From Escherichia phage phiEB49: a stretch of 47,180 nucleotides of DNA. This document shows positions 1 through 47,180 of this stretch, one piece after another. The DNA is taken from the sequence record JF770475; one strand, written 5' to 3'. Position 1 is the stretch's first letter. Every line of letters starts with the position of its first letter. The position numbers and the translations under genes are program-made. The notes beneath the pieces were generated by a model. The model did not search any database, was not told the DNA's origin, and saw only the letters and a list, made by a program, of their open reading frames with translations.

Positions 1-258
1 TTTGTGTGAAGTCATCATACCATTAAATGCAACCATTGCAAGCATTATCTACGCGTAGAAAAAAGTTATGACCTGTTATTTTTTATGGTTACGCCGCCAG
101 CCCTTGCACTGCAAGGTTGTTATACCGTAGAAAAATGTAGATTGATTTTTTACCCACCTCTTGATGCCCCTCTGGATTGCGCTTCTTGCAAGTATTTATC
201 ACCAGCGCAATATAAAAAATATCACCAATATCTCAGATAATCATGGTTACGGAATAAC

Positions 259-283
259 ATATAATAATAATAATAATAATAAT
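259..283. repeat. (ATA)7 microsatellite in AT-rich control region
   Basis: Direct read: ataataataataataataata; a shorter (ATA)3-4 copy with similar flanks lies at about 19589-19602. Confidence 0.8.
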
Positions 284-460
284 AAATCTAAAGTGTTGTT
301 ATATAAGGGATTTATTTTGTAACCAGCGCGTAAATTCGCGTGAATGTCGTAGATGTGGCTAAATGTCTACACGGTTGAACAGTTTATAACGCGTATATAA
401 AGGAAGGATCTCCGCGGGCGACAAAACCAACCAACTAGTTGATACATCCTCCTTCATTCC

Positions 461-580
461 ATCAATCTATCAATCATTGCTCAATTCGCAACAGTCCAGA
501 AAATCATTGCAAAGGATGCAATATTGCTATAAGTGCAATAGTACAGAGAATCATTGCAATATCTGCAACAATCCGTAAAT
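461..580. repeat. iteron-like cluster of ATCATTGCAA / TGCAATA repeats
   Basis: ATCATTGC at 473, 503, 550; TGCAATA at 517, 534, 555; palindrome GCAATATTGC; non-coding, between divergent gene sets. Confidence 0.6.
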
Positions 581-586
581 CTCACC

Positions 587-632
587 AATAGCACTTTTTG
601 CTAATGACCGCTCAGTCCTGATTGGGTATAGT
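587..632 (+). promoter_or_regulatory. dyad-motif promoter (TAGCA-N5-TGCTA, then TATAGT)
   Basis: Dyad core 589-603, 23-nt spacer, TATAGT 627-632, leader with GAGGAG SD before ATG 661. Confidence 0.5.
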
Positions 633-660
633 CATCACATCAACAGCGAGGAGATATAAA

Positions 661-879
661 ATGAAATCGATTATTATCAACAACGAAATCAAATTTGACG
701 AAGATGCATTGAGCCTGGCTGATATGGGCTATGAGATTGGTGAAGGGGTTGAAGTTTTTGAGCTTGGTGGAGATTACTTTATTGATGCAAAGCAAAATGT
801 TGTTATTGACGGCATTGTAGCCATTTACGAAGGTGAAGAGGTTTACGTAACAAAAGAAGAAATCGAGGTATTAGCATGA
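661..879 (+). CDS. hypothetical early protein (73 aa)
   Basis: ORF track 622..879 trimmed to ATG 661 preceded by GAGGAG SD; stop overlaps next start (ATGA). Confidence 0.5.
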   Translation: MKSIIINNEIKFDEDALSLADMGYEIGEGVEVFELGGDYFIDAKQNVVIDGIVAIYEGEEVYVTKEEIEVLA

Positions 880-1115
880 AGATTCGCTGCACTAATGTTA
901 TTCAAAGCACAGACAAGAAAGTATTAACACCATTCGTAAAAGGCTCTGTATACGACGCTGAGCAGTTAATCATTAACGGTAAGGCAATCCCGAACGAGTG
1001 GTTGATTAATGGCGCTGAGCGACCGCACAAGCACGATTCTGGATGGATTGCTATCGCTGGCTGGAAGGTTGGAATGTTTATACCTGGAATCGCAACTTTT
1101 GACGAGGTGAAATGA
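876..1115 (+). CDS. hypothetical protein (79 aa)
   Basis: ORF track; start overlaps upstream stop. Confidence 0.45.
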   Translation: MKIRCTNVIQSTDKKVLTPFVKGSVYDAEQLIINGKAIPNEWLINGAERPHKHDSGWIAIAGWKVGMFIPGIATFDEVK

Positions 1116-1268
1116 ATGCTAAAGCCATCTGATTTGAATTATTACGATCTGGAAACCATAGCGAAGTACAGCGGCAAAGGCTGGCCTGTTGGTGACTACT
1201 TTAAGGAAGACCTGATAGAGAGCTTTCAGGTTGTCCAGGAAGCAATTACAAAAGCAGCAAAGAAATAG
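1116..1268 (+). CDS. small hypothetical protein (50 aa)
   Basis: ATG immediately after upstream TGA; below ORF-track cutoff; stop lies inside next dyad motif. Confidence 0.3.
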   Translation: MLKPSDLNYYDLETIAKYSGKGWPVGDYFKEDLIESFQVVQEAITKAAKK

Positions 1269-1308
1269 CACTAATTGCTAAAGCACTTACAGAAATTTGA
1301 TGTATATT
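1264..1308 (+). promoter_or_regulatory. dyad-motif promoter
   Basis: TAGCA-ctaat-TGCTA 1266-1280, 22-nt spacer, TATATT 1303-1308, leader AACGAGAGGA before ATG 1338. Confidence 0.5.
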
Positions 1309-1337
1309 TATTTCACACCAAACGAGAGGATATAAAC

Positions 1338-45077: not shown

Positions 45078-45202
45078 TTCTTCTCCTCGCGCTCGCGCCA
45101 CATGTTCATCAACTCAAAGTATGCCATTGCCTCATCGCCGTCCTTTGCCTCATCCATCATCTTCTTGCACCACTCAGAAGGATTCATTTCCTTCTTCTTC
45201 AT
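45074..45202 (-). CDS. small acidic protein (42 aa)
   Basis: MKKKEMNPSEW...; below ORF-track cutoff. Confidence 0.25.
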   Translation of the reverse strand: MKKKEMNPSEWCKKMMDEAKDGDEAMAYFELMNMWREREEKK

Positions 45203-45249
45203 AATCAGGTCCATCACTACCTTTGCCTCATCTATTTTCGATAAAGTAA

Positions 45250-45293
45250 TAATATCGCATCCTTGCGATTAATGTTTAGCAATTCTTGCTATT
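45250..45293 (-). promoter_or_regulatory. dyad-motif promoter
   Basis: Core 45277-45291 (TAGCA-attct-TGCTA) overlapping upstream stop; weak -10 near 45251. Confidence 0.4.
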
Positions 45294-45540
45294 TGCTGAA
45301 ATAAACATATCCAAGCTCATCCCGCTGCTTTCGAAGCTCAACAGCCTTATTAAGCGACTCAATGGCGTCATTAAGGTCTGTTAGATAGTCCTTATGCCCT
45401 CGCAAACCAGTGCAAAGCATCTTTTTAATTGCATGCTGAATTGCTGGGTCAGTTACGCAAAATGCATCAAGAACTCGATATACATCAACTGTTACTTCAG
45501 TTCCATCGAGGCCGATAATCTCTCGGTTGTACTTACTCAT
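45289..45540 (-). CDS. hypothetical protein (83 aa)
   Basis: ORF track 45289..45588 trimmed to ATG 45540. Confidence 0.45.
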   Translation of the reverse strand: MSKYNREIIGLDGTEVTVDVYRVLDAFCVTDPAIQHAIKKMLCTGLRGHKDYLTDLNDAIESLNKAVELRKQRDELGYVYFSK

Positions 45541-45676
45541 AATCTTCACCCTCATTAACAATAATAAGACCAAGACAATCGCTATCACATGCAGTTAAAT
45601 TTCCAAACTTTTTGTGGAACTCAACGCATTCGCTGATTGTCGTAAATTCATATTGATTTTCAACTTTGTTATTCAT
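45533..45676 (-). CDS. small Cys-containing protein (47 aa)
   Basis: ATGA-coupled to downstream gene; below ORF-track cutoff. Confidence 0.25.
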   Translation of the reverse strand: MNNKVENQYEFTTISECVEFHKKFGNLTACDSDCLGLIIVNEGEDYE

Positions 45677-45794
45677 ATCTCAATCCTCGTTATCGTGCCG
45701 CCATGCGTCGCCTGCATCAACATGGCGTATCTCTCGTCTATATAATGCAGTAGCATATCCATACCCCTGCTGCTGAACTTGTGCTCGTATATGG

Positions 45795-46034
45795 TCACTT
45801 GTATTGGCTAGACAGTTGGCAACCTGATAGCGCTGTGCAAATCTGCTCGTATCGGCTCCATGCGGTATCGGTATCCCATGGCAGCTCATCTACTTCATCG
45901 AACTCTTGGTTGCGAATCTGATTTAGGGCCTCTGCGATGACGCCTGAATCCTGGAACATTCCTTTTGAGTCGAAGTACTGAAGTGCTACTTTCAGTGCAA
46001 ATGCTTGCTCTTCTGACAGGTTAATGGTAATCAT
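45795..46034 (-). CDS. hypothetical protein (79 aa)
   Basis: ORF track; preceded by dyad promoter and conserved leader. Confidence 0.45.
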   Translation of the reverse strand: MITINLSEEQAFALKVALQYFDSKGMFQDSGVIAEALNQIRNQEFDEVDELPWDTDTAWSRYEQICTALSGCQLSSQYK

Positions 46035-46065
46035 GTTAACTTCCTCTCGTTTGGTTGATAGGGTA

Positions 46066-46110
46066 ATAATAGCTGACTACCCGATTTATTGTTTAGCAAT
46101 TAGTGCTATT
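46066..46110 (-). promoter_or_regulatory. dyad-motif promoter
   Basis: Core 46094-46108; minus TATTAT 46066-46071; leader CCAAACGAGAGGAAG. Confidence 0.5.
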
Positions 46111-46648
46111 TACCGGTCAGGATATACTTCTCTTTGGCCTTGAGCTTACGAATTGCCTCGCGTATAAGTTTCAGCTGAGATTCATCAACTTCATTCATAA
46201 AATCAACCACGACAAATTCATCCTCCAGTGGCTTTACTTTACCAATCCATTCCTGCTTTCCATCCAGCAATCGAGGGTTGATGTAAATCTTATCGCCGAT
46301 TAGGCATGTATAGCCAAGCTTATCCAGGGTTGGAATGATGACATCCTTAATCTCCTTCATGACTCCATTTCGCCCGTCGAATGGCTTAACTTTCCGTGCC
46401 GCCTCATATAGTGACCTGAGGCCCACAACGCCCTTGGAGTTCATCCCTTGCTTAATGAGGGTTTCGATGATTTTTAAGGTTCCACTGTCTAGCTCGAAAT
46501 CTTTAACCTCAGCCAACTCAGGCCACATCTTCGCAGATTGTCGATAACCATTAGCATTTATTGCAACTCGCATCACTGGCAGTCCTTCAAGCGTTGCGAT
46601 TTCATAAATCTGTTCTTCGGTTAATTTATGTTCAACGAAGTCAAACAT
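46106..46648 (-). CDS. short paralog (180 aa) of the 527-aa early protein, lacking the central P-loop region
   Basis: Shares MFDF..RVAINANGYRQSA N-terminus and NSKGVVGLRSLYEAARKV..GDKIYINPRLL C-terminus with 1805..3388. Confidence 0.55.
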   Translation of the reverse strand: MFDFVEHKLTEEQIYEIATLEGLPVMRVAINANGYRQSAKMWPELAEVKDFELDSGTLKIIETLIKQGMNSKGVVGLRSLYEAARKVKPFDGRNGVMKEIKDVIIPTLDKLGYTCLIGDKIYINPRLLDGKQEWIGKVKPLEDEFVVVDFMNEVDESQLKLIREAIRKLKAKEKYILTGK

Positions 46649-47163
46649 TATTTAGTATCCTTAATCATTTCCTGATATGCATTAATCATAGCCACCGCGC
46701 CCTTTAACTCATCGCCGCTCATTCCCGCAACGCTAGGGGATAGCTTTAGTAGTCGAGCCTTAAATTCATTTACCGCTTTCTCTTCCAGCTGATTGTTGGT
46801 CTTTGCTCTCGTTCCGGTCTTAACGGCGCCATCAACCATTGTAAGTTTGACGCAGTAAGCACAAGGATCATCTCCAAACTCCATGTTGAGAACTGAGAAT
46901 CTCGCTCGCTTATTCGCATCCTTTACTTCTTGCATTCTGCTGGCCGTATTGGAAACATAAGAAGCCTTAAGCTTAGGTATTGAATATTTCCCGCCAGGCT
47001 TGAAATAAGAGTCGCACAACTCTTTCTCGATGAATCCATCATTTAGCTTCTTATAAATCATCTTGTATGGTATGGCGCATGCTCCATCTTCAGAAGCTAG
47101 TGCTTCACGAACCATGTATCTAACGATGTCACCAAGTGATGGCTTGCTTGTATCTTGATTCAT
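46648..47163 (-). CDS. hypothetical protein (171 aa); its promoter and leader wrap across the window boundary
   Basis: ORF track; leader CACACAAACGAGAGGAG is split between 47164-47180 and 1-12. Confidence 0.5.
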   Translation of the reverse strand: MNQDTSKPSLGDIVRYMVREALASEDGACAIPYKMIYKKLNDGFIEKELCDSYFKPGGKYSIPKLKASYVSNTASRMQEVKDANKRARFSVLNMEFGDDPCAYCVKLTMVDGAVKTGTRAKTNNQLEEKAVNEFKARLLKLSPSVAGMSGDELKGAVAMINAYQEMIKDTK

Positions 47164-47180
47164 TTTTACTACTCCTCTCG

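Follow-up and report, generated by a model that had tools for sequence, protein, structure and literature searches.

T1-like phages are described as terminally redundant and permuted, and those of the AKS96 type as circularly permuted (PMC4070988). TLS and T1 are pac headful phages with 3-4 permuted variants per packaging series (PMC11447400), UDF157lw was assigned to headful (pac) packaging by PhageTerm (PMC10838988), and SU57 has a circular restriction map without a cos site (PMC7718038). According to the authors of the KanT1 paper, T1-like phages have no fixed ends and their records are oriented to T1 (PMC13164509); the T1 record itself (NC_005833) carries the annotation repeat_region 1..2800. 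Here we analyse the two ends of the record of Escherichia phage phiEB49, which is listed in the table of Niu et al. with 47,180 bp, 44% GC and accession JF770475 (PMC4070988). It is a generalized transducing phage that packages ~50 kb (PMC3573659), compared with a unit genome of 47.18 kb. The window, i.e., the whole stretch of DNA analysed (positions 1 to 47,180; 44.0% GC), is the unit-length circular map of phiEB49 without terminal redundancy, and its boundary separates the leftward gene gp74 from its predicted promoter.

The window proteins gp74, gp73 and gp58 are exact matches to phiEB49 proteins, and the gene numbering of the relatives, when compared with EB49 gp1/gp2 and gp73/gp74, agrees with the window ends. 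In the NCBI lineage the phage belongs to Drexlerviridae, Rogunavirinae, Lindendrivevirus (Lindendrivevirus EB49). All the best nucleotide matches are Drexlerviridae, as expected from the description of a T1-like phage in the first-pass annotation of the window, and the close relatives are Drexlerviridae/Rogunavirinae with 83-87% identity over 55-65% of the sequence. Both nucleotide similarity and gene order place the window in this group. AKS96, AHP42 and Rogue1 (Rogunavirus) show these values over the genome together with full circular collinearity with the window.

When the window ends are joined, the junction reads CTCCTCTCG followed across the join by TTTGTGTGAAGT. The joined minus strand is GGTATGATGACTTCACACAAA followed by CGAGAGGAGTAGTAAAAATG (also given as TTGCAATGGTTGCATTTAATGGTATGATGACTTCACACAAA followed by CGAGAGGAGTAGTAAAAATG). 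Positions 47164-47180 are CGAGAGGAGTAGTAAAA on the minus strand, with the ATG next at 47163-47161, and positions 1-20 are TTTGTGTGAAGTCATCATAC. The 21-mer crossing the junction, CTCCTCTCGTTTGTGTGAAGT, recurs at 40530-40550 (21/21 positions) and at 26228-26248 (20/21), while its chance expectation from dinucleotide-preserving shuffles, with up to 3 mismatches allowed, was 0.00 matches. An 18-nt core, TCACACAAACGAGAGGAG, has three exact copies in the circularised genome. The ends thus rejoin into a recurring leader, as had been claimed at first pass, and each string quoted there was found at its given coordinates. No overlap and no common k-mer of 14 nt or more was found between the two window ends, so the window is a unit-length sequence without a terminal duplicate. 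The first-pass annotation had also suggested that the joined ends be re-scanned for genes and motifs. This returned a sigma-70-type promoter and no open reading frame (ORF) longer than 27 amino acids (aa) over the join in the circularised sequence; only a regulatory region is split.

The junction region is divergent, and a 332-nt query taken from it, run in distant mode against the phage collection, retrieved 5 records only. For this reason local blastn and Logan contigs were used for the junction. Four orthologous junction loci were compared: the contigs L008 (SRR22560153_840, 25.9 kb) and L009 (SRR22535176_1911, 11.9 kb), which are independent assemblies of public runs, and the phages TH27 (MT446401) and AKS96 (KF771239). 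Each contig has a homologue of gp74 (90% identity or more) with the divergent small-gene/helicase operon upstream of the gene, which is the arrangement made by the join, and single high-scoring segment pairs run through the join with 85% (L008) and 90% (L009) identity. AKS96 and TH27 also gave single local blastn alignments through it. When aligned with MAFFT, none of the four orthologues has an indel at the junction column, and between the -10 element and the ATG a single position out of 42 distinguishes L008 from the joined sequence. The exact junction 40-mer had no match in IMG/VR, so no identical phage of another permutation was found there.

The blastn comparison of the window with the whole AKS96 genome was collinear round the entire circle, at the following corresponding positions:

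Window 205: AKS96 41903, with the AKS96 coordinate falling.
Window 43218: AKS96 6.
Window 43225: AKS96 45745, after the wrap.
Window 46998: AKS96 42287.

Across the join this leaves 386 nt of window sequence, compared with 384 nt of AKS96. The map of the unit-length sequence is circular, and the phiEB49 genome is closed and complete. The first-pass claims of a closed circle and of a complete genome are both borne out, the one by a seamless join that is contiguous in L008, L009, TH27 and AKS96 without an indel at the junction, and the other by the circular collinearity with AKS96 and by the identity of the window with the 47,180-bp complete-genome record of phiEB49.

The boundary falls between the promoter of gp74 and the gene. 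The promoter scan found a sigma-70-type promoter, TTGCAA-16 nt-TATGAT with an upstream TG, from window 41 to 14 on the minus strand. The elements on both sides of the join are:

Window 36 to 41, minus strand: -35 hexamer TTGCAA (promoter scan) of the predicted sigma-70 promoter of the leftward gp74 operon.
Window 14 to 22, minus strand: extended -10 element TGgTATGAT, with the TG at 22-21 and the hexamer at 19-14 (promoter scan and alignment).
Window 1 to 13, minus strand: predicted distal part of the gp74 5' untranslated region (UTR), with a probable transcription start near window 7; positions 1-12 are the first half of the shared 21-nt leader.
Window 47164 to 47180, minus strand: proximal part of the gp74 5' UTR, with the Shine-Dalgarno sequence GAGAGGAG at 47179-47172 and the second half of the shared leader.
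Window 46648 to 47163, minus strand: gp74, 171 aa, DUF7174, phrog_4841, a homologue of Rtp gene 1 (AKS96_63 annotation).

The two hexamers are spaced within the 16-18 nt of sigma-70 promoters, lie upstream of a gene and are conserved in orthologues. The promoter is kept in L008, L009 and TH27, and its equivalent in L008 is at 3943-3970. From the -10 spacing, transcription is predicted to start near window 7. The 5' UTR would then be ~24 nt long, with the record boundary 17 nt ahead of the ATG and directly adjoining the Shine-Dalgarno sequence on its 5' side. With the promoter at the window start, and the ATG of gp74 and its Shine-Dalgarno sequence at the window end, the cut is inside the predicted 5' UTR. 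The earlier statement that the record was linearised within such a region agrees with the hexamers from window 41 to 14 and the Shine-Dalgarno sequence and ATG from 47179 to 47161, the transcription start being a prediction. As gp74 is the first gene of a long leftward operon, the record boundary separates this gene from its promoter. In AKS96, the promoter-gp74 unit is contiguous inside the record, whereas the phiEB49 record splits it.

About 60 nt upstream of the -35 element of this promoter there is a perfect palindrome, CCTTGCA-C-TGCAAGG, at window 102-116. The scan called it terminator-like. It contains the TTGCA motif and could equally be a candidate operator-type protein-binding site.

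For the packaging mode we considered the terminase genes:

Window 42708 to 43223, minus strand: small terminase (TerS) of the P22 gp3 type (phrog_606, E=8e-60; Pfam GP3_package, 34.2 bits compared with a cut-off of 29.4).
Window 40592 to 42154, minus strand: large terminase (TerL), gp58 (phrog_38, E=3e-107; Pfam Terminase_6C; exact match to phiEB49 gp58).

A P22 gp3-like small subunit and a large subunit, the pair by which a headful-type terminase is recognised, are thus both present. As in P22/Sf6-type headful packaging, the small terminase of phiEB49 is in the gp3 packaging-protein family and generalized transduction is documented. Headful packaging by phiEB49 itself is therefore probable, and the first-pass description of a headful (pac) T1-like phage receives indirect support from the GP3_package match of TerS, from the transduction by phiEB49 and from relatives that are pac-type or permuted. 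An HNH endonuclease gene (window 42154-42642, minus strand; phrog_99, E=8e-69) separates the TerS and TerL genes, an arrangement shared with AKS96.

The records of the relatives open elsewhere on the same circle. That of AKS96 opens at the TerS start codon, which corresponds to window 43224/43225, and is another permutation. Others have their boundary or, in Sf12, the first aligned base within the first 600 nt of the window:

Window ~446: record boundary of UDF157lw (PhageTerm-reorganised), from an alignment spanning its boundary.
Window ~515: record boundary of TH27, from an alignment up to its record start.
Window ~500: T1 position 1, from a weak syntenic alignment (64% over 192 nt, E=7e-9).
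Window 389: first aligned base of Sf12, at its record position 98.

T1 is of the same family and has the same divergent intergenic region at its record boundary as phiEB49. In both phages this region separates the helicase operon from the small-gene/terminase operon, and the TTGCA-rich repeat region of T1 can be weakly aligned to that of phiEB49. On the other hand, position 1 of T1 corresponds to about window 500 and not to window 1, its first gene ST77 is unlike gp74, and its record annotates a terminal repeat of ~2.8 kb while the window is unannotated. T1 gene 77 (ST77) was considered as a homologue of gp74 and rejected, as no similarity was detectable; the correspondence with T1 consequently relies on synteny and the weak DNA alignment. 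In the Shigella phage Sf12 (MF158039; L006/L007), window 389-544 aligns to both the record start (~98-254) and the record end (~47488-47644). In the Sf12 record, 157 nt or more thus appear to be directly duplicated at the two termini, as either an assembly overlap or retained redundancy.

We consider it very probable that the window is the complete unit-length genome of phiEB49, presented as a linear record of the circular map of a headful phage. We propose that the map is circular because the phage packages from concatemers by a headful (pac) mechanism; the virion molecules would then be terminally redundant and partly permuted, and the reads would assemble as a circle. The choice of opening point would have been arbitrary or guided by annotation. 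It lies 17 nt ahead of the gp74 ATG, between the sigma-70-type promoter at the window start and the ribosome-binding site at the window end, and rejoining the ends restores the promoter-leader-gene unit to the base. With a TerS of the P22 gp3 type and T1-like phages that are headful packagers, the position of the window ends is most likely a matter of convention in the record and probably not that of physical ends. Several points weigh against this account. The GP3_package match is only modestly over the cut-off, and for phiEB49 itself the terminal redundancy, the permutation and a pac site are predictions. A collapsed direct terminal repeat, with the record opened at the true terminus, would give an equally seamless join. 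Further, the ~640-nt intergenic region that holds the cut is also the conventional starting region of T1-like records and contains the annotated pac end of T1, so a link to a physical end is conceivable. The last two points argue for the boundary at 47180/1 being a true physical terminus, either a pac first cut or the edge of a fixed direct terminal repeat, at which the record was opened deliberately, and T1, with its annotated repeat, and several relatives do begin in this divergent region. However, the homologous starts of T1, UDF157lw and TH27 are ~450-520 nt away, a cut directly 5' of the gp74 ribosome-binding site has the look of a choice made in annotation, and the family-level data are of permuted, non-unique ends. 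We therefore regard a physical terminus as improbable.

Far less probable again is a false closure, in which the genome is incomplete or the contig was broken at a short repeat, the fit of the ends being due to the triplicate 21-nt leader. The boundary is indeed inside a three-copy sequence, and assemblies tend to break at repeats. However, a read-based assembly would not be broken by a repeat of only 21 nt, the sequence beyond the 21-mer aligns through the join too, and promoter and gene are linked at equal spacing in the four orthologous loci, besides the near-equal interval across the join and the whole-circle collinearity with AKS96. We give an equally slight chance to a replicon that is itself circular, for example a plasmid-prophage or a circular episome, in place of a linear permuted virion genome. 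It would fit the circular map, but the window holds the full gene set of a virulent Drexlerviridae phage (terminase, portal, capsid and tail genes included), the annotations of the relatives were not seen to contain integration or partition functions, and phiEB49 is documented as a lytic generalized transducing phage.

Close to the join is a stretch that is conserved far above the flanking genes:

Window 211 to 600, no strand: conserved non-coding block between the divergent operons, with an (ATT)n run and tandem 47-nt repeats (476-568).

Across phiEB49, the two Logan contigs and AKS96, 70-100% of the columns in the block are invariant, rising to 90-100% across the four phages in its core at 211-330. 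An (ATT)n microsatellite is found at ~262-290. The two tandem 47-nt repeats, at 476-521 and 523-568, carry TTGCAATGATT / AATCATTGCAA, and the motif AATCATTGCAA also overlaps the -35 element of the junction promoter (window 31-41). The small ORF AKS96_62 was considered as the cause of the conservation of this TTGCA-repeat block and rejected: since its frame has an ACG start and an early stop in the window, the conservation is non-coding. By the record starts of T1, UDF157lw and TH27, a candidate pac region may be placed at ~446-570. It is possible, though we put it forward only tentatively, that the block at ~211-600 is the pac site and/or a replication origin of Rogunavirinae. We know of no T1-like pac site that has been convincingly defined at the sequence level. 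In the SU57 paper the pac site was not identified (PMC7718038), and that of TLS was assigned only through a 6-nt resemblance to P22 (PMC11447400).

The leader at the junction has two internal copies:

Window 40530 to 40550, minus strand: leader copy with 21/21 positions, upstream of a 68-aa ORF (40316-40522).
Window 26228 to 26248, minus strand: leader copy with 20/21 positions, upstream of a 121-aa ORF (25855-26220).

The first-pass annotation had described a conserved promoter-leader architecture. The leader half of this holds, since ACTTCACACAAACGAGAGGAG, of ~21 nt, is common to all three copies, but it is the only part that is, and the promoter half differs. The junction copy follows the sigma-70-type -35/-10 elements; the internal ones are instead downstream of the T1-like ATAGCACnnnTTGnTAAA repeat. 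One promoter common to the three leaders was accordingly rejected, as the sigma-70 -35/-10 is found at the junction copy only and the internal copies follow the ATAGCAC repeat. Each internal leader is in a segment that is an insertion when compared with AKS96, which is without both of them: a segment of ~500 nt (25795-26294) and one of ~410 nt (40180-40592), the latter between the portal and TerL genes. Both have the same layout, consisting of the ATAGCAC repeat, a spacer of ~30 nt, the 21-nt leader and a small ORF, and the upstream regions of the 121-aa and 68-aa ORFs are 77% identical over ~140 nt. The two segments resemble a pair of related, inserted gene cassettes in which the gp74 leader is reused. 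The ORFs themselves were not accepted as clear paralogues, their similarity being weak (38% over 40 aa, E=0.008). The leader of gp74 and the two cassettes might serve in translational control, or it might be a joint at which cassettes are inserted by recombination; we hold this idea as tentatively as the one on the conserved block. The match of the 68-aa ORF to phrog_14592 ('virion structural protein') is confined to the N-terminal half of the latter.

T1-like phages have an intergenic 21-nt direct repeat with the consensus aaATAGCACnnnTTGnTAAAA, whose role was left as an open question in the TLS paper (PMC11447400). It was found that the window holds 22 matches to this repeat, compared with 0.62 expected, and that most are oriented with transcription, a feature that again assigns the window to Drexlerviridae. 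Examples of the copies are:

Window 588-605, plus strand: direct-repeat copy.
Window 1265-1282, plus strand: direct-repeat copy.
Window 8483-8500, minus strand: direct-repeat copy.
Window 26277-26294, minus strand: direct-repeat copy.
Window 40578-40595, minus strand: direct-repeat copy.
Window 46092-46109, minus strand: direct-repeat copy.

A further copy at 12433-12450, on the minus strand between the plus-strand primase and tail fibre genes, runs counter to the local transcription.

Two other observations concern further genes of the window. Upstream of the terminase genes, tRNA-Val(AAC) and tRNA-Arg(CCT) are adjacent on the minus strand (window 43830-43906 and 43908-43983, respectively); at the equivalent place only tRNA-Arg is annotated in AKS96, whereas phiEB49 has two tRNA genes. 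The gene gp73 (46106-46648, minus strand; 180 aa, phrog_7327) has a segment in common with the C-terminus of the 527-aa DUF3987 helicase (1805-3388, plus strand). The cross-matches of the two are reciprocal (phrog_7327 and phrog_2373), and blastn pairs window 3173-3383 with AKS96 42808-43018. Judging from these matches, the gp73 segment is a partial duplication of the C-terminal domain of the helicase on the other side of the join.

The circular map of phiEB49 is already known and ordinary for T1-like headful phages, the phage being a known generalized transducer with a published complete genome. In practical terms, a linear scan of the record misses the link from promoter to gene for gp74, and tools that take the window ends as real ends will mis-call the termini. 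To the biology of T1-like phages our analysis adds nothing beyond one lead of some value, which is the conserved non-coding block by the join. If the pac site is homologous to that of T1, the first headfuls would begin ~0.5 kb from the window start and extend across the join, which would then be part of the terminally redundant segment.

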